Positions 3,049-31,936 of a DNA stretch of 33,112 nucleotides are shown here, piece after piece. Every line of letters starts with the position of its first letter. The first letter of the stretch is position 1. The notes under the pieces are model-generated. The model saw nothing but the letters and a program-made list of their open reading frames with translations, ran no database searches and was not told where the DNA came from. The position numbers were made by a program, and so were the translations under genes. Source of the stretch: a virus. Location of the stretch: IMG/VR virus record IMGVR_UViG_3300001865_000264; one strand, given 5' to 3'.

Positions 3049-5766
3049 TTAAAACCTCTCTTTGAAACTTATTGATTGAATAGTTGCACCTGTGGTATTT
3101 GAAAAATTATATTGATTATTCAGTACTAACCTGTCCGAGTTCATATCAATATATTCAGTATAATCATTCCCGTCTGTATCTATGATTTTTTTTGTTTTTG
3201 CATCATAAATTAGGGCTGTGCCCCTTGTGAATTCATAATGTATCGTCATGGTCTGATTTTCAATGGATTCAGTTATAACAATCTCTGAACCAGTAGTTAA
3301 TAATTTTATCACAGGGAAAACTCGAGTTAAACCATTATTAGTTCCAACCATACCTGTTATTTTAGTATCAACAGATTCTGCTACTCCATCAGGTATTATG
3401 AGTTCCGCTTCACATTCAAAATCTTCAAAGTTACGGTCTGCCGTAATCGGTTTTTCAAGAATATAATTATATTGTTTATATGGTTCTAAATCAAATATAA
3501 TTCCTTTAGAAATTGGTTTATTATATTTATCCCTTTCATTACTTATCCATTGGATTATTCTATCCATCAAATTATCTGATTCAGTTAAAGCTTCTGATAT
3601 TACATTGAATTTAAGTTTAATTGTTTTTTCTTTAATATTACTTCTTGTAGGATATTTTCCATCAGCACCTGTCACATCAGAATAATTCACATCATTGTTT
3701 GCTCCACGAGGTATGCCATCCTCATCTAACATAATACCAAATAACTTTGAATGTGTACCTTCAATCATAAACCCTGGGGCCCCGCCCGTTTGATCTATAG
3801 TGTAAAAAATAGTAAGTTCTAAATTATTCAATAATACGTTCAATGAGTCTGTAGTCATGTTTTGTAATTGCAGATAAAATTTTAGATCTGCAATATTGAT
3901 CTGATTTAGATTTAATCCCCAATTATCATAAGTGCCCCCTATACTGATTTGTGTAGTATCTGAATCTAAAACACATGATTGTGGACTAGATTCATGAAGA
4001 AGCTCGTCTTTTAATGAATATATCCCTGCAGTGATTATAGTATCTCCACTGAGAATACAGTCCCCGGTTATCTTGAAGCCAGTTACTAAAATTGTTTCAT
4101 CTGTTTCTAATCCTGCTGTGTTAATATCCTCAAATACATACGATCCACTTTTTTGTAACGCTTCCAGATTTAATTCAGCAAAATCACCATTAATGATTAG
4201 GAGGTTTTTGTCATTGAATAATTCCATTGGATCTTCAAAGCCTTCAAAGTATTCAATAGGCACAATTGTGGGTTCTTGACTGAATTCAACACTTATATCA
4301 TTTTCATAATACCCCACATAACCCGCATAAAACTTAAAATTATATGTTGATTCTGAATCATAAATAAAAGAAGCAGTTAATAATTGAGTTTCACCAATTG
4401 CACTTATCTGATTTGAAAATATTTCTTCTGTGTCTTTTATTATACTGAAACGATTATTTAATGGCCCATTAAATAATGGGTGATTTTGAGCATCTACTAT
4501 TTTTGCATAGAAAGCAACTACATACTCTCGACCATTTTCAAGTTCTGAGAGTATATCCTGACTAAATGGTACCGTGATAGTATAAGTTTCTGTTAGCGTG
4601 GCAGCAATAACGTAAATATTATTTACATTACTAATCTGAGTGTCACCAGTGCCATGTGTTATTGTCTGTGTTAATGTACCAGTACTACTTGCAGATGCTG
4701 TGATTGTGAGGGTTGCCTCACGATTTACGAAACTCACAGCCCATATTCCCGTGCTAATATTATATGTCCCGTTTCCTGTGCTACTAATATAGTCCAACCC
4801 GGCGGGGAATGGTATATTTACTTCAGTAGTGGTTATGGCATCACTATTAACTGTGATTTTGATTTGATAATCAAATTTGTTTAACTGAACCTCATTTGCT
4901 GGTAAAGTACTACTAAGAACATAAGTAGGATTATTCACCGTCACTGAACGAGTAATATTTACTCCAGTACTTGCCTCAGTAGCTTTTAAGCTTTTAGAAC
5001 CTACACTCGTAGTATTAAATGTTAAGTATAGTTTAGCCGTACTATTTGTTAATTGAGCAGCCCAAACACCACTACTATACGTACCAGGACCACTATGAGA
5101 CATATAAACTAAACCAGATGGAATGGTAATGTTAACAGTCACCGTGCCACCAGGGTTAATCGCATTAGTATTATTCACTGTTATTTCAAAAGTTACGGGT
5201 TCACCAAGGACCTTAGCCTCTGGTGTGGTCATATTTACACTGTAAGTAGGTAGAGTGTAATTAACTGTGACTAAGATATAATCTAATGCCAAATCCCCAG
5301 GATTTGTACTAGTATTTTTAGGGTAGTTAATTCCCACACCAAAATTACCACTATTCACCATTGCAGGGGTAGGTTGCCAAGTACTAGACCTAGTCCATGT
5401 TTTGGAATATGCTGTCCTGCTTGTAGGTGGAGCGTTACCAAGTTGTGAAGCTGCTCCAACATTGTACAGAGTCAGTGTAGGAGCTGCTATGCTCATATGA
5501 GCAGTTGAACTACTATGACTTATCTTATAATGTTCATATGTGACTACTATTGAATCAATACGAGCATTACTAGGGATACTAAACCCAAAACCAGTTGCTT
5601 TTAATGGTCCTGGCCGGTTATATGTACCGCTGGCCGTTGCAATGTCATTACATCGAGCATCAATGTTATCATTTGCTCGAGCATTACTCAAACTAGACCA
5701 ATTTCTGAAAGGGATACCAGTACTCGTTTGTGTTATCGTACTAGGATATTTAGTTATTGCAACCAT
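3049..5766 (-). CDS. Distal tail protein (Dit) with long N-terminal extension containing two DUF11-like Ig domains
   Basis: C-terminal ~245 aa is Dit-like (GFMIEGTHSKLFGI, VTGADG, IKEKTIKLKF, FDLEPYKQY, ELIIPDGVA); two repeats of V(T/K)ITV...V.I.(I/F)P.GL.Y.S.(S/T)G.GTY..G(V/I)W resemble DUF11. Confidence 0.75.
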   Translation of the reverse strand: MVAITKYPSTITQTSTGIPFRNWSSLSNARANDNIDARCNDIATASGTYNRPGPLKATGFGFSIPSNARIDSIVVTYEHYKISHSSSTAHMSIAAPTLTLYNVGAASQLGNAPPTSRTAYSKTWTRSSTWQPTPAMVNSGNFGVGINYPKNTSTNPGDLALDYILVTVNYTLPTYSVNMTTPEAKVLGEPVTFEITVNNTNAINPGGTVTVNITIPSGLVYMSHSGPGTYSSGVWAAQLTNSTAKLYLTFNTTSVGSKSLKATEASTGVNITRSVTVNNPTYVLSSTLPANEVQLNKFDYQIKITVNSDAITTTEVNIPFPAGLDYISSTGNGTYNISTGIWAVSFVNREATLTITASASSTGTLTQTITHGTGDTQISNVNNIYVIAATLTETYTITVPFSQDILSELENGREYVVAFYAKIVDAQNHPLFNGPLNNRFSIIKDTEEIFSNQISAIGETQLLTASFIYDSESTYNFKFYAGYVGYYENDISVEFSQEPTIVPIEYFEGFEDPMELFNDKNLLIINGDFAELNLEALQKSGSYVFEDINTAGLETDETILVTGFKITGDCILSGDTIITAGIYSLKDELLHESSPQSCVLDSDTTQISIGGTYDNWGLNLNQINIADLKFYLQLQNMTTDSLNVLLNNLELTIFYTIDQTGGAPGFMIEGTHSKLFGIMLDEDGIPRGANNDVNYSDVTGADGKYPTRSNIKEKTIKLKFNVISEALTESDNLMDRIIQWISNERDKYNKPISKGIIFDLEPYKQYNYILEKPITADRNFEDFECEAELIIPDGVAESVDTKITGMVGTNNGLTRVFPVIKLLTTGSEIVITESIENQTMTIHYEFTRGTALIYDAKTKKIIDTDGNDYTEYIDMNSDRLVLNNQYNFSNTTGATIQSISFKERF

Positions 5767-21902: not shown

Positions 21903-22436
21903 TTATTTTATGTAACTTGTGAGTTGATGAGGATCCTTATAATAACGTGGTGTATAATAAAATCCAATAACACGTGTTCCACTCTTTCTAAAGCTGAACA
22001 CTAATTCAGAGTCAAAATTATAACCAAAAGGATAATTCAATTTAATGTTTTCTGGAATGAATCCTGGAGGTCCGTCCAAAACAAGGCCACATCCTCTGCA
22101 GATAGTTTCATCATGCTTAAAATCATGCTCAAAAACTGTGGATCCACATTCAGGACACTTATCCTTACGTTCAACTTTAGGATCTTCCTTTGTCAATTCC
22201 TTCAAAGTATAAGATAATGCACCTGCAGCTCCTTTTAGGTAAAGTCCACAGTGTGGGCAAGTCCATATAATAGCTCGGTGAATAAATGGTTTCTTACAAT
22301 CAGGACAATAACCAGCTTTTACGGTTTTTATCCAGTCTTCATCCCATTGATACTTGTAAACTTTTTTAGTAAGGAGGTGGATGCCCGGGGTGAGGACATC
22401 CACATTGTTGCTCTGGGGACATTTAGACTCCATCAT
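21903..22436 (-). CDS. Double Zn-ribbon protein including a TFIIB/TFB-type ribbon; candidate late transcription regulator
   Basis: CPDC..CPHC and KCPECGSTVFEHDFKHDETICRGCGLVLD, which follows the TFB N-terminal ribbon pattern; last gene before the late operon. Confidence 0.75.
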   Translation of the reverse strand: MMESKCPQSNNVDVLTPGIHLLTKKVYKYQWDEDWIKTVKAGYCPDCKKPFIHRAIIWTCPHCGLYLKGAAGALSYTLKELTKEDPKVERKDKCPECGSTVFEHDFKHDETICRGCGLVLDGPPGFIPENIKLNYPFGYNFDSELVFSFRKSGTRVIGFYYTPRYYKDPHQLTSYIK

Positions 22437-22949: not shown

Positions 22950-25664
22950 ATGCCTATTAGTTGGAATGAAATCAAAAGTAATGCATTAGAATTTTCTAAA
23001 GAATGGGAAAATGAAACCCGTGAACATGCTGAAGCTAAATCATTTTGGGATGATTTTTTTAAAGTTTTTGGATTACCCCGAAGAAGAGTAGCAATATTTG
23101 AAAAACATGTCAAAAAATTGGGAAATAAAGATGGTTTTATTGACTTATTTTGGCCAGGGACCTTATTAGTAGAGCATAAATCCAAAGGAAAAAATTTAGA
23201 TAAAGCTTTTGATCAATCTATAAACTATTTTGAAGGAATAGAAGAATATGAACTTCCAAAATATGTGATAGTAACTGATTTTTATAAAATGAGAGTTTAT
23301 GACCTTGAAGAAGATACTGAAAAAGAATTTAAATTGAAAAACTTAGTAGATAATGTTCATTTATTTGGTTTTATTGCAGGATACCAAAAAAGGACTTATA
23401 AAGAATCGGATCCTGTTAATATAGATGCTGCAGAATTAATGGGGAAATTACATGATCGCTTAAAAGATAATGGGTATACAGGTCATCATCTAGAAGTTTA
23501 CTTAGTAAGATTGTTATTCTGTTTATTTGCAGATGATACAGGAATATTTCAAAAAGATATATTTTTAGATTTCATTCAAAATAGAACAGCTCCCGATGGA
23601 TCTGATTTAGGGAGTAAATTAACAGAATTATTCCAATATTTAAACACTCCTGAAGATAAACGCCCTAAAACGTTAGATGAATCAATAAATGAATTTCCTT
23701 ATATTAATGGAGGGTTGTTTGAAGAACAATTACCTGTAGCTTCTTTTGACAAAAAGATGCGTAGGGTACTCTTTGAATCCTGTTATTTAGATTGGGGTAA
23801 AGTTTCACCAGCTATCTTTGGTTCCTTATTTCAGTCAGTCATGGACACTGAACTTAGAAGAAACTTAGGAGCGCATTACACTTCTGAAAAAAATATATTA
23901 AAACTAATTAATCCACTATTCATGGATAGTCTCTGGACTGAATTCCATAGCGTTAAGCATAATATTAATCGTTTAAAAGAATTTCATGAAAAAATATCCA
24001 AATTAAAATTCTTTGATCCTGCATGCGGATGTGGAAACTTTCTAATTATTGCTTATAGAGAACTGAGATTATTGGAAACAGAGATCATTAAAATTTTATA
24101 CTCCCATCCAGATGGAGATATTCAGCAGTCATTCCATAGCCAAGATCTTTCAAAAATAGATGTGGATTCATTTTACGGCATTGAAATAGAAGAATTTCCT
24201 GCCCGTATAGCTGAAGTATCCATGTGGATGATGGATCATCTAATGAATCGGGAACTATCACTTGCGATAGGACATAATAATGTAAGATTACCTCTTAAAA
24301 ACTCAGCTAATATCTATATTAAAAATGCTTTAAGGGTTGATTGGAATTCAATTATTCATCCATCTGAATTGTCTTATATTATTGGTAATCCTCCATTTTC
24401 AGGTAAACATCTTCAGGATATTAGTCAAAAAGAGGATATGGATCTTGTTTTTGAGGGTGTTAAAGGATATAAAGTGTTGGATTATGTGGCTTCATGGTAT
24501 ATTAAAGCAGCTAAATACATACAAAACACAGATATCAAAGTAGCTTTTGTTTCAACTAACTCGATAACTCAGGGGGAACAAGTGGGTATTTTGTGGAATG
24601 AGCTTTATAATTATAATATTAAGATTCATTTTGCTCATAGAACTTTTAAATGGACTAATGAAGCTCGAGGAAATGCAGGGGTTTACGTAGTAATTATTGG
24701 ATTTGCTAATTTTGATACAAAACAAAAATTTATTTTTGAATATGAAAAACCTACATCAGACCCTCATGAATTAAAAGTTAAGAATATTAACCCATATCTG
24801 TTAGAAGGAACTGATTTAATCATCCTTAAAAGGAGTAAAACTATCTCCAATGTTCCTAAAATCATGTTTGGGAGTAAACCTGTAGATGATGGAAATTTAT
24901 TATTAAATGAAGAAGAACGGTTGGAATTGATAACTAAAGAGCCAAAATCTGAAAAATATATAAAACCTTTACTTAAAGGAAAAGATTATTTGCATAATAA
25001 AAGTAGTTGGTGTTTATGGTTGTTAACTATCTCTCCAAAAGAATTAAAAGATATGCCCCTAGTTTATGAAAGAGTTAAAAAAGTGAGAGATTTTAGATTA
25101 TCAAGTAAAAAAGCAAAAACCAGAGAAAATGCGGATAATCCCACAGTTTTTGCTGAACTACGTCAACCAGAAAGTAATTTTATAATAATTCCTTTAACTA
25201 CTTCTGAAAATAGAAAATATATTCCCTTATCATTCTTTAGCAAAGATTATATTGTTAACAATACTGTTAGTTATGTCCCAAATGCAAATCTTTACCATTT
25301 TGGAGTTTTATCATCAGTAATGCACATGACATGGATGAGATATGTTGCAGGAAGATTAGAAAGCAGATATAGATATTCTAACCAGATTGTGTACAATAAT
25401 TTTCCATGGCCACTAAATCCAACTCAAAAAGAAATTGAAAATATTAAATTAAAATCTCAAAAAATATTAGAGATTAGAAAAGAATTTCCAGATAGTTCTT
25501 TAGCTGATTTATATGATCGAATAGCTATGCCTCCAAAGTTAAGAAAAGCTCATAAGGAATTAGATAAAGCTGTGGATAAAGCATATGGGAAAAAATTTGA
25601 TAATGAATTTAATCGAATGAAATTCTTATTTGAGCTTTATGAGAAATACATTGAAATGAATTAA
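22950..25664 (+). CDS. MmeI-family type IIL restriction-modification enzyme (fused endonuclease, m6A methyltransferase, specificity domain)
   Basis: MPISWNEIK..A..FSKEW N terminus; GFIDLFWPGTLLVEHKS (D...ExK nuclease); FPYINGGLF; GAHYTSEKNI; FFDPACGCGNFL (motif I); IIGNPPF (motif IV); WMRYVAGRLESRYRYSNQIVYNNFPWP; LADLYD..MP..L.KAH..LD.AVD.AYG. Confidence 0.95.
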   Translation: MPISWNEIKSNALEFSKEWENETREHAEAKSFWDDFFKVFGLPRRRVAIFEKHVKKLGNKDGFIDLFWPGTLLVEHKSKGKNLDKAFDQSINYFEGIEEYELPKYVIVTDFYKMRVYDLEEDTEKEFKLKNLVDNVHLFGFIAGYQKRTYKESDPVNIDAAELMGKLHDRLKDNGYTGHHLEVYLVRLLFCLFADDTGIFQKDIFLDFIQNRTAPDGSDLGSKLTELFQYLNTPEDKRPKTLDESINEFPYINGGLFEEQLPVASFDKKMRRVLFESCYLDWGKVSPAIFGSLFQSVMDTELRRNLGAHYTSEKNILKLINPLFMDSLWTEFHSVKHNINRLKEFHEKISKLKFFDPACGCGNFLIIAYRELRLLETEIIKILYSHPDGDIQQSFHSQDLSKIDVDSFYGIEIEEFPARIAEVSMWMMDHLMNRELSLAIGHNNVRLPLKNSANIYIKNALRVDWNSIIHPSELSYIIGNPPFSGKHLQDISQKEDMDLVFEGVKGYKVLDYVASWYIKAAKYIQNTDIKVAFVSTNSITQGEQVGILWNELYNYNIKIHFAHRTFKWTNEARGNAGVYVVIIGFANFDTKQKFIFEYEKPTSDPHELKVKNINPYLLEGTDLIILKRSKTISNVPKIMFGSKPVDDGNLLLNEEERLELITKEPKSEKYIKPLLKGKDYLHNKSSWCLWLLTISPKELKDMPLVYERVKKVRDFRLSSKKAKTRENADNPTVFAELRQPESNFIIIPLTTSENRKYIPLSFFSKDYIVNNTVSYVPNANLYHFGVLSSVMHMTWMRYVAGRLESRYRYSNQIVYNNFPWPLNPTQKEIENIKLKSQKILEIRKEFPDSSLADLYDRIAMPPKLRKAHKELDKAVDKAYGKKFDNEFNRMKFLFELYEKYIEMN

Positions 25665-29234: not shown

Positions 29235-29450
29235 TTATCCCCTCACACAGCATATTTGAAAATATTCTCCACCAACACAAAGCAGGACCTGATCCTGGAT
29301 CTTCAGTTTGTGGTCCAGGTAAGGTAGGTCCTCAAAGTTTCCAGGCATGAATTTTTTAAGATCCTGAATAGGTGTGACATGGAGTTTCTGACCTTTACTG
29401 GGAAAAAGACTGTATAAGCCCATTTCTGGGTTGAATCTAAAAACTCCCAT
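29235..29450 (-). CDS. Hypothetical protein
   Basis: Likely start MGVFRFNPE behind GGGGAGGG; operon packing. Confidence 0.6.
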   Translation of the reverse strand: MGVFRFNPEMGLYSLFPSKGQKLHVTPIQDLKKFMPGNFEDLPYLDHKLKIQDQVLLCVGGEYFQICCVRG

Positions 29451-29685
29451 CCTTGAATCCCTCCCTTTTTTTGTGAAGACATTCCTCACCATTTTTAACA
29501 AAATTACATGGTTCTAAAAATTTATTCACACCACGTAATGCTGCAGGACAAAATACCACATTCTCCGAAGCCCCCAAGGGTATGTGAAGAATATTATCAA
29601 TATCCTCCAAAGCCTGTTCTAAATCATCTGTTTCCTTATAATGTTTCAAAACCTCTGATAATGCCAATTTAACAATCTCATCCAT
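29437..29685 (-). CDS. Hypothetical protein (82 aa)
   Basis: Start MDEIVKLALSE behind GGGGGGA; the longer track ORF overlaps the ParB gene. Confidence 0.6.
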   Translation of the reverse strand: MDEIVKLALSEVLKHYKETDDLEQALEDIDNILHIPLGASENVVFCPAALRGVNKFLEPCNFVKNGEECLHKKREGFKDGSF

Positions 29686-29701
29686 CACTAATTCCCCCCA
29701 A

Positions 29702-30568
29702 TCATCTTTTACTAGGCATTTCCAGTGCCCTTCTAATATCCGATTCACGTATAGTTTTACGACCCTCACGCTCCGCAGCCTTATACGCTTTGATTGTGAT
29801 GCGTTCAGTCTCACCCTCTAAATACTGCTTTAACAACTCCGCAGCCTTGTCACCAACCTGACAAACATTGGTCTCAAAGAAATCCAACTTCGTCTGAACC
29901 AAACGCTTCACAGTCCCCTGAGCCAAACCCTCAACCTTCGTACCCTGTGGTCGACCAGGTTTACCCTGACTCTTCTTAATCTCTTGATGTGCCCTGTGAA
30001 CACTCGTCTTCTTACTGTCTAACTTCTGAACCTGTTCCACTGCAACCTTCCTGACATTTGGATCTTCACTCTGAGTAGCAGATAGGATCCTACGAGCCTC
30101 CTCATACTTACGAGGAGACATCTCTGCATGACTTGCTACACGGTCCCGCACACGACCTACAGGTTCACAAACCTCTTTCTCAAGGGTTTTACGATACTGC
30201 TTCAAACCTGATAATCGGTTCTTATCTGCCCGTTCCCTGTAAATCTCCTCTAATGCCTTGCATTCATTCATGAGTTGTGAGAAGGTTTTACGACGCTGCC
30301 TGTTATGCTCAATCACCGCCTCCTCCTCAGCCAGCTTATCCGGATATCCCACAATGTTACAGGGCAGTTTAGGAGGATTTTTCATGTCCATTGCAGCTCT
30401 CCATCTGCGATGACCACTAATAATCGTCCCATCCTGTAAAACCGTTAAGGGTACAAGAACACCATGTGTTTTAATGCTTTCAATTAACTCCACATCAGGC
30501 TCTTCCTTACCATACAAAGCCTTATTCAATGGATGGGCCTTCAAATCCAAGACCGTTAACTTCCGCAT
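29702..30568 (-). CDS. ParB/Srx N-terminal domain, HTH-like middle, C-terminal archaeal histone fold
   Basis: LIESIKTHGVLVPLTV..GTIISGHRRWRAA (GxxRxxA box); RVRDRVASHAEMSPRKYEEARRI; VKRLV...VGDKAAELLKQYLE...KAAEREGRKTIRESDIRRAL; ATG 30568 behind AGGTGA. Confidence 0.85.
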   Translation of the reverse strand: MRKLTVLDLKAHPLNKALYGKEEPDVELIESIKTHGVLVPLTVLQDGTIISGHRRWRAAMDMKNPPKLPCNIVGYPDKLAEEEAVIEHNRQRRKTFSQLMNECKALEEIYRERADKNRLSGLKQYRKTLEKEVCEPVGRVRDRVASHAEMSPRKYEEARRILSATQSEDPNVRKVAVEQVQKLDSKKTSVHRAHQEIKKSQGKPGRPQGTKVEGLAQGTVKRLVQTKLDFFETNVCQVGDKAAELLKQYLEGETERITIKAYKAAEREGRKTIRESDIRRALEMPSKR

Positions 30569-30580
30569 CAACCATATCAC

Positions 30581-30865
30581 CTATTTACCTGTGAATTCGT
30601 CCATAGTCACCTGATCCACAACACTCAAAACCGCAGATTTCTTATGACACCAAGCACATAGACTCAACCCTTCGGTTGTGTCCGTATGCCAAATATGCTC
30701 AGGTTTCATCATATTGATGGCCCTGCAACCTGCACGGTGAACCTTACCAGTATTCGTATTAACAATCAAATCACCCTCCTGGACCAGGTCCAATTCTTCA
30801 CCTGGAAGATCCACCTCTAGTGCAGCTGGTAAGGCAAAATGAAAAATAGAAGGGAGGGCAATCAT
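30581..30865 (-). CDS. Protein with Ada-type Zn-binding-like domain
   Basis: VNTNTGKVHRAGCRAI..M...LCAWC. Confidence 0.6.
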   Translation of the reverse strand: MIALPSIFHFALPAALEVDLPGEELDLVQEGDLIVNTNTGKVHRAGCRAINMMKPEHIWHTDTTEGLSLCAWCHKKSAVLSVVDQVTMDEFTGK

Positions 30866-31900: not shown

Positions 31901-31936
31901 CCCCACCGTGTGGGCAAAATTGCCCACACGGTGGGG
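31901..31936. repeat. GC-rich perfect inverted repeat, 17-bp arms with 2-nt spacer
   Basis: CCCCACCGTGTGGGCAA-AA-TTGCCCACACGGTGGGG, 12 nt past the integrase stop. Confidence 0.95.

Follow-up and report, generated by a model that had tools for sequence, protein, structure and literature searches.

The stretch of DNA analysed here (in full, the window) is the 33,112-nucleotide viral record IMGVR_UViG_3300001865_000264. On its minus strand lies a gene, referred to here as the ParB-histone gene, whose single protein product joins a ParB/Srx N-domain, a helix-turn-helix (HTH) region and an HMf-like histone fold. Such a single-chain fusion had been proposed in a preliminary description of the sequence, and it was borne out by one open reading frame (ORF) in which the Pfam families ParB_N and PF00808 each scored above their cut-offs. 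Residue numbers throughout count from an upstream GTG codon (the extended form P0001); subtracting 4 gives the numbering of the 288-residue protein. The gene and the parts of its product are located as follows (pLDDT, predicted local distance difference test).

29702..30568, minus strand: ParB-histone gene, 288 codons plus stop, ATG at 30568 (ORF list)
30284..30568, minus strand: ParB/Srx N-terminal domain of nucleotide-binding type, residues 5-99 (PF02195, phmmer, Foldseek)
30395..30415, minus strand: GHRRWRA, the GxxR P-motif of Box II, its catalytic Glu replaced by His, aligned to M. xanthus GERRWRA
30293..30307, minus strand: HNRQR, a Box III (ENLQR)-like motif with N93, Q95 and R96 invariant
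30077..30151, minus strand: helix-turn-helix of the central domain, helices 144-151 and 156-168 in the AlphaFold2 model
29924..29965, minus strand: flexible basic linker with an AT-hook-like GRP motif (KPGRPQG), pLDDT below 50 at residues 208-217
29717..29926, minus strand: histone fold, with alpha1 at 221-235, a long L1, alpha2 at 244-271, L2 and alpha3 at 279-285
29738..29761, minus strand: RKTIRESD, the L2/alpha3 RxTxxxxD "R-D clamp", compared with GRKTIKAEDI in HMfA and GRKTVKVEDI in HPhA

The open frame is listed at 29702-30580 (minus strand) with a GTG start, and this GTG-extended form, P0001, has 292 amino acids (aa). Because an IMG/VR relative that is about 95-96% identical (L001) carries a stop at the third codon of the extended frame, we assigned the true start to the ATG at 30568, which gives a predicted product of 288 aa. 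The sequence GGTGAT lies 5' of this ATG with eight-base spacing, and the end coordinate of 30568 in the preliminary description proved exact. The gene is under purifying selection, with ratios of non-synonymous to synonymous substitution (dN/dS) ranging from 0.03 to 0.16 over the whole gene and the histone domain, as given here for the window with L001 and for two further relatives.

Window versus L001: dN/dS 0.09 for the whole gene, 0.03 for the histone domain
L032 versus L041: dN/dS 0.16 for the whole gene, 0.11 for the histone domain

At the 3' end of the gene, a 125-aa ORF listed at 29437-29814 overlaps it by 113 nt; this downstream gene more likely begins at an internal ATG at 29685, 17 nt past the ParB-histone stop, and would then encode 82 aa.

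The histone identity of the C-terminal domain was supported by both sequence and structure searches. Pfam CBFD_NFYB_HMF (PF00808) matched residues 240-286 with 24.1 bits (E 4.5e-5, cut-off 21.4) over profile positions 19-65 of 65, while its scores in the fused relatives were 25-33 bits, and the NCBIfam archaea_histone model (NF043032) matched with E 5.4e-10 and 39.5 bits, under its cut-off of 50. In a search of Protein Data Bank (PDB) sequences, HPhA and HMfA matched residues 240-288, HPhA reaching E 4.2e-6 with a family profile of seven members. The C-terminal 87 residues modelled alone gave a pLDDT of 85, and all top Foldseek and VIA matches of this model were histones. Foldseek placed it on HPhA, HMfB and HMfA with template modelling (TM) scores of 0.86-0.88 by target and a root-mean-square deviation (rmsd) of 1.3 Å over 69 columns, HPhA giving TM 0.88 at 32% identity and the three histones identities of 29-32%. 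VIA-align returned Z 9.2 with an rmsd of 1.6 Å over 66/66 residues, and in the full-length model the last 69 residues were separately aligned to HPhA by Foldseek. As modelled, the C-terminus is a genuine histone fold, of the nucleosomal type found in archaea.

The preliminary description had aligned this region by eye with HMf-type histones, and its particulars held. The C-terminus models as a three-helix histone fold that superposes on HPhA and HMfB at 1.3-1.6 Å, helix 1 provides through VKRLV the equivalent of HMfB R10 (R226), and helix 2 is long, with 28 residues (244-271) in the AlphaFold2 model. Its RKTIRESDI salt-bridge motif places R274 and D281, the Asp at +7 in HMMER alignments with HMfA and HPhA, at the positions of the RxTxxxxD R-D clamp as defined in PMC13260811. 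Loop L1, said to be longer than in HMf, spans 8 residues in the model and exceeds its HMf counterpart by 6-7 residues, and the HMMER alignment of a free paralogue (described below) carries a 7-residue insertion. The minor-groove arginine of HMfB L1 (R19, "RV") is replaced by Gln241-Val, with Gln in all seven members having the loop. HMfB L46, H49 and L62, which we take to be the numbering of the four-helix-bundle tetramer interface, correspond in the HMMER alignment to Ala268, Arg271 and Arg284, and the tetramerisation His of HMf is absent as had been noted, the position of His49 being Arg271. The domain is basic in every family member, with an isoelectric point of 8.3-10.

Two copies of the histone domain were predicted to form a homodimer, with an interaction prediction score from aligned errors (ipSAE) of 0.75 against 0.00 for the best of three controls; runs agreed in at least 90% of contacts and the partner pLDDT was at least 78. 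The mark for a homodimer is reached by 20 of 30 solved homodimers and by 1 of 23 monomers. The predicted contacts, alpha2-alpha2 and L1-L2, are those of the histone handshake, in keeping with the dimerisation through the histone fold that had been supposed. The PDB contains many histone dimers, so the pass may stem from resemblance to solved ones, which is likeness and not proof of binding. Since the L1 arginine and the tetramer-interface residues are missing, nucleosome-like polymers would not be expected, and the histone fold is probably a dimeriser that binds DNA non-specifically rather than a nucleosome builder.

The N-domain was matched by Pfam ParB_N (PF02195) over residues 26-91 (E 2.3e-7, 31.2 bits, cut-off 26.3). 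A phmmer search against PDB sequences returned structures of ParB and Noc binding cytidine triphosphate (CTP) at ~1e-5, and the seven-member family profile matched M. xanthus ParB at E 2.6e-6. Foldseek aligned the N-domain to ParB bound to cytidine diphosphate (ParB-CDP), Noc, KorB and the pNOB8-like ParB-N at E 1e-6 to 1e-4, and the full-length model to ParB-CDP, Noc, C. crescentus ParB, KorB and the pNOB8-like ParB N-domain over 220-275 columns, about 275 of them for the last. The PHROG ParB-like families span residues 30-208, and TIGR00180, the model of canonical ParB, reached 33.3 bits, below its cut-off of 58.45. No Pfam match was obtained to the ParB C-terminal dimerisation domain PF23552, the C-terminus matching PF00808 instead.

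The full-length AlphaFold2 model (mean pLDDT 80.8) shows an alpha/beta N-domain followed by a long helix at 100-128 and then the HTH, and Foldseek alignments to ParB and Noc constructs of the N-domain plus DNA-binding domain cover 221-236 columns. Both N-proximal elements of the preliminary description were recovered, the ParB GxxRxxA box as GHRRWRA at residues 56-62 (30395-30415) and the HTH-like middle segment as the modelled helices 144-151 and 156-168. In the linker, GR(P) is kept across the close family, and P0047 has RGRPKG.

We compared the nucleotide site with M. xanthus ParB, whose residue roles were taken from PMC13229309. The base and phosphate contacts S35, G40, R59 and N93 (M. xanthus S68, G73, R95 and N127) are kept and invariant, as is the whole of G56-H-R-R59, and HNRQR appears by alignment to correspond to ENLQR. 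The hydrolysis residues are changed family-wide, Q52 to Asn19 and E93 of GERR to His57. At the Box I arginine position (M. xanthus R54; codon 21, window 30518-30520), the window copy has Ala, L001 has Arg and the remaining close members have Arg or Lys. The ParB-CTPase fold may use CTP, ATP or GTP, and the sequence gives no prediction as to which (PMC12704722). Of the CTP-gated clamp in the preliminary description, the part that stood is the set of contacts to a nucleoside triphosphate (NTP); the catalytic Glu, now His, the Gln, now Asn, and the TIGR00180 score below cut-off did not bear it out. Because the hydrolysis residues are changed and the nucleotide of the fold is unpredictable from sequence, we treat the "CTP clamp" as an extrapolated hypothesis and a CTP-hydrolysing clamp as unproven.

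Searches of 5.8 billion clusters and 1.84 billion representatives yielded thousands of relatives of the N-module, the close ones mostly being fusions with methyltransferases of the N6/N4, MT-A70 or D12 type. When the C-terminal domain alone served as query for phmmer in a local search, only P0002 (the window product), P0003, P0004, P0005, P0036, P0174, P0037 and P0047 came out; eight other proteins of the same architecture were recovered in this way at E 1e-55 to 3e-8. Since the C-terminal domain alone recovers proteins of the same architecture and the top structural matches are histones, chance resemblance is excluded for the histone domain. L001 and a second copy in L041 are further members of the fusion family. 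The about ten distinct relatives are 32-96% identical and come from independent assemblies of several studies, and all are single ORFs; the frameshift or stop between two genes that the preliminary description had entertained was not found. Every relative sits in an integrase-bearing element. Beyond the IMG/VR relatives, the architecture search recovered the fusion in one Methanobacteriaceae metagenome-assembled genome (MAG) only among the GTDB genomes, in two copies, that of L041 lying within a 205-kb contig.

A scan of JGI metagenomes gave 80 ParB-N relatives and none with a histone fold, and among ESM Atlas clusters of at least 50 members none had the ParB-histone architecture. The ESM Atlas structural neighbours of residues 5-215 were viral fusions of ParB_N with N6_N4_Mtase, DruA or HTH_3. 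Because these neighbours are other ParB_N fusions, the N-module is a common viral cassette and the histone fold an unusual passenger. No stand-alone short relatives of the histone domain were found by a word-based search, an insensitive method, and an equally insensitive search at "near" length returned two fused members only. Directly 5' of P0003 lies a 160-aa free histone fold with a C-terminal zinc ribbon (L033:4916-5398, L034:4632-5114, L035:9482-9964). It scores above the cut-offs of both PF00125 (27.9 bits) and PF00808 (21.9 bits), shares 37% identity and the lengthened L1 with the fused domain, and lacks a counterpart in the window. Histones of one small viral lineage therefore exist both as free proteins and fused to ParB, and the free histone could be a dedicated partner of the fusion. 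The fusion family as a whole has few members, all of them in Methanobacteriaceae (pro)viruses that are relatives of the cultivable Drs3.

The other recurrent feature is a palindrome, found in the window 12 nt past the end of the integrase gene and about 1.3 kb 5' of the ParB-histone gene, with counterparts in related elements.

31901..31936, no strand: perfect 17+2+17 palindrome of the window, candidate loading site, with a 28-bp core at 31905-31932, ACCGnnTGGGC-n6-GCCCAnnCGGT
L032, 8554-8581 and 6761-6794: palindromes
L033, 3632-3659 and 3686-3713: palindromes
L041, 8667-8694 and 8709-8736: two palindromes of 13+2+13, of related sequence and at the same distance
L038, about 1330-1405: a different pair of palindromes after the integrase

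In L032 and L033-35 the 28-bp core is found again, 1.4-1.8 kb 5' of the homologous genes and close to a degenerate second copy, so that the window, L032 and L033 share ACCGnnTGGGC...GCCCAnnCGGT in both sequence and position. Since these elements share only 52-60% protein identity yet keep the sequence of the palindrome, its conservation suggests a protein-binding site. The palindromes of L041 and L042, two elements of the same MAG, differ in sequence, which would fit element-specific recognition, and the recognition helix of the HTH differs between palindrome-bearing elements. In 2.9 million viral contigs of IMG/VR the pattern had two matches, both GC-rich and without a ParB-histone gene; we took these as chance occurrences in unrelated DNA. 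A core site of a tyrosine recombinase needs a 6-8-bp overlap region. A perfect palindrome with a 2-nt centre has none, so we rejected a core attachment site as unlikely.

A lone non-palindromic half-site of the palindrome with one mismatch (ACAGTGTGGGCAA) occurs at 22248-22260 of the window, inside a TFB-type zinc-ribbon gene, where by our estimate ~0.04 such matches would be expected by chance. In L033, the region 4240-4760 between the palindromes and the early genes holds sequences that resemble the T-arm and 3' end of tRNA, e.g. GGTTCAAATCCCACC, which may be tRNA genes or remnants of attachment sites.

The window as a whole is the genome of a tailed virus, with terminase, portal, MuF, protease, capsid, tape measure, Dit and tail proteins, a C39-type endolysin, a tyrosine integrase at the right end and, as cargo on the opposite strand, an MmeI-type restriction-modification gene at 22950-25664. 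Its terminase (TerL) shares 83% identity with the terminase of Methanobacterium virus Drs3 (Anaerodiviridae), a virus without the ParB-histone gene and, per its annotation, without an integrase. The window is a temperate relative of the lytic Drs3 with a different early module, and the element that hosts the gene is a temperate Methanobacteriaceae siphovirus. In the early region of the window we recognised no replication protein, whether polymerase, primase, helicase or initiator. The ParB-histone gene is the fourth ORF of a leftward operon that starts beside an AbrB-type divergent regulator and adjoins the switch region and the integrase; we read it as an early operon. The same layout is seen in L038, L143 and L032: an integrase, a small divergent gene and an operon in which the ParB-histone gene comes close to the start. 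PADLOC gave no match of note. Directly upstream of the gene lies one conserved neighbour.

30581..30865, minus strand: Cys-rich gene of 94 aa, conserved neighbour, no family match

This 94-aa gene is homologous to the N-half of the gene 5' of P0004 in L032 (tblastn E 4e-19). Its product has the cysteine pattern HxxGC...CxxCH. Both L032 and L041 keep it beside the ParB-histone gene, in a version fused to an additional zinc-ribbon half.

The preliminary description had seen no ParA. The scan of all window ORFs of at least 190 aa agrees, giving no ParA-type ATPase, and none was present in the related loci; AspA was not found in the window either. The N-terminal ParA-binding motif (L/F/I)G(K/R)G(L/F/I), as defined in PMC12704722, is absent by eye from the ParB-histone sequence.

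Taking these results together, we favour, with a probability of roughly 55%, a dimeric, NTP-modulated, site-loaded DNA-binding protein in which a histone fold stands in place of the ParB dimerisation domain. The histone fold would replace the usual C-terminal dimerisation domain and provide a permanent handshake homodimer with a basic surface, while the GRP linker would add non-specific DNA contacts. The HTH would recognise a specific site, for which the 28-bp palindrome is the candidate, and the N-domains would bind NTP and engage each other, forming a clamp-like or bridging nucleoprotein complex on DNA. Since both hydrolysis residues are replaced (Glu by His, Gln by Asn), such a switch would probably be slow or hydrolysis-independent. 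The protein would act as a dimer without building nucleosome-like polymers, and its role would more likely be to organise the genome early on or to control transcription, on viral or host DNA, as with KorB, VirB and HerB, than to serve ParA-driven partition. Tethering of an episome is not needed for these elements, because they carry integrases.

Several points weigh against this proposal. The Ala at Box I could weaken nucleotide binding by the window copy. Because the Glu of GERR is His and at least one phage ParB keeps its function after mutation of NTP residues (PMC13229309), the N-domain may have a structural role rather than that of a switch. Upstream of P0005 in L143 the palindrome is missing. 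It could also simply be a terminator, possibly a bidirectional one, because it lies directly 3' of the integrase and between convergent genes, with flanking T-runs. Moreover, nothing ties it to the ParB-histone protein over the product of another conserved gene, whose operator it may be.

The best surviving alternative, which we nevertheless consider unlikely, is that the histone fold heterodimerises with host HMf-type histones or caps host hypernucleosomes, with the ParB and HTH parts tethering viral DNA or chromatin being locally remodelled. The host family has HMf-type histones, and the domain, at 29-34% identity to HMfA, HMfB and HPhA, keeps the dimer core and the R-D clamp. The changes at the tetramer interface (L46 to Ala, H49 to Arg, L62 to Arg) would suit a chain-terminating histone, and the free paralogue beside the P0003 fusion gene shows that partner histones can exist. 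On the other hand, the homodimer is confidently predicted, an identity of about 30% means no recent capture of a host histone, and the L1 Arg, the DNA contact of the host histones, is missing. More doubtful still is a site-loaded viral ParB clamp with a chain-terminating histone fold that would plug into, cap or displace host histone polymers. Such a clamp would load at the 28-bp palindrome and spread on the incoming viral genome, which would be kept free of host hypernucleosomes or be selectively wrapped by them.

We regard as improbable that the N-domain is a nuclease or another NTP-using enzyme that the histone fold anchors on DNA, for instance in attacking host DNA or countering defence. 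The best PHROG family is labelled "ParB-like partition nuclease", but that label is an annotation and not a test. Relatives are fused to DNA-modifying enzymes and GHRR departs from the GERR of the CTPases, while no nuclease motif was identified in the protein, PADLOC found nothing of note and the HTH and clamp-like architecture are retained.

Equally hard to credit, if not harder, is a partition ParB that would mark the palindrome as a centromere-like site and segregate a viral episome with a host ATPase or an unrecognised one, in the manner of pNOB8. This would suit a protein that has, besides its ParB N-domain, an HTH and a dimeriser at the C-terminus, and whose gene lies near a palindrome. 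The pNOB8 protein offers a precedent for a histone-like ParB C-domain (PMC5120986), and the pNOB8-like ParB-N can be aligned with the full model across about 275 columns. Against it stand the lack of ParA or AspA in the window or related loci and of the N-terminal ParA-binding motif by eye, the TIGR00180 score below cut-off, the integrases of the elements together with the position of L041 inside the 205-kb contig of a Methanobacteriaceae MAG, and the rarity of ParA linkage among archaeal ParB-like proteins (PMC12704722).

An artefact, whether two genes joined by an assembly or frameshift error or a chance histone likeness of a helical tail, might be suspected from the modest single-sequence scores (PF00808 at 24.1 bits, NCBIfam under cut-off), yet it is refuted by the uninterrupted ORF in independent assemblies at 32-96% identity, by the family profile that lifts the HPhA match to E 4e-6, by a fold match spanning the whole histone at 1.3 Å and by the domain dN/dS of 0.03-0.11.

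In the ParB-histone protein, two DNA-organising modules that are among the best understood come together in a way that yields clear predictions at little cost. If dimerisation is all that the histone fold does, a ParB clamp would be closable by an unrelated dimeriser, and the resemblance seen in pNOB8 would be extended to a histone recognisable at the sequence level. If the fold also interacts with host histones, it would give a handle on the conflict between viruses and chromatin in archaea. Should the proposal of a site-loaded capping clamp be true, no viral chromatin manipulator would have been described before this protein for an archaeon with histones, and histone-based chromatin would be linked directly to switches of the ParB type. 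To our knowledge, the dealings of methanogen viruses with host chromatin are largely unexplored. Because the family is confined to (pro)viruses related to the cultivable Drs3, one can envisage experiments in Methanobacterium.

We found no description of the architecture, which is real and rare. A histone partner is unnamed among the ParB-fold fusions in the main text and supplementary text files of PMC12704722, and the word ParB is absent from the main text of the histone surveys PMC11390915 and PMC13260811, in accord with the preliminary description, which knew of no report of this arrangement. Histone-fold proteins of archaeal viruses are not treated in these two surveys.

Among known histones, HMfA/B, HPhA and HTkA (PF00808, NF043032) share with the ParB-histone domain the three-helix fold, the 28-residue alpha2, the GRKTI...D clamp and the handshake dimer, which is predicted here. 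Unlike them, the domain follows 215 residues of ParB and HTH, has a longer L1 and is changed at the L1 Arg and the tetramer interface. The fused histones of Schwab et al. 2024 (Rab-GTPase, ZZ and phage) likewise use a histone fold as a module, some of them on tailed phages, but they are truncated in alpha3 and the phage histones are without RxTxxxD, whereas the ParB-histone domain has a nucleosomal-type alpha2 and the motif (PMC11390915).

On the ParB side, fusions of orphan ParB-fold domains are common on mobile elements (Kaljevic et al. 2025, PMC12704722). The orphan viral fusions of ParB_N, HTH and methyltransferase are structurally nearest to the ParB-histone protein, with 34-47% identity over the N-terminal 200 residues. 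Like it, orphan ParB-fold fusions have no ParA, occur on proviruses and carry a modular C-terminal partner. In the methyltransferase fusions that partner is an enzyme, whereas here it is a histone fold, as a putative dimeriser and DNA binder.

The nearest precedent is pNOB8 ParB of a Sulfolobus plasmid (AspA-ParB-ParA), whose C-terminal DNA-binding domain has a CenpA-like fold of histone type (PMC5120986). It too is a ParB of an archaeal mobile element, and its N-domain is among our Foldseek matches. It works, however, with AspA and ParA, neither of which was found at the window. Its C-domain is not among the top Foldseek or VIA matches of the ParB-histone domain model, which speaks neither for nor against a likeness. 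In contrast to the structural resemblance in pNOB8, the fold described here is detectable by sequence and closest to the euryarchaeal nucleosomal histones.

HerB (YfjB) of conjugative plasmids is an orphan ParB-like protein that is expressed early and binds to the host chromosome; it combines a CTP domain with an HTH and a dimerisation module of a new kind (PMC13370423). It is bacterial, its dimerisation module is unrelated in sequence to that of the ParB-histone protein, and its nucleotide binding and DNA loading have been shown, whereas the ParB-histone protein is known here from sequence and models. On paper, HerB, KorB and VirB all resemble the ParB-histone protein in the CTP-type N-domain, the HTH, the non-canonical dimeriser and the clamp-like dimer. 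HerB is moreover expressed immediately on entry of the mobile element, outside any ParABS system (PMC13370423), and by analogy we regard it as the closest functional counterpart of the ParB-histone protein.

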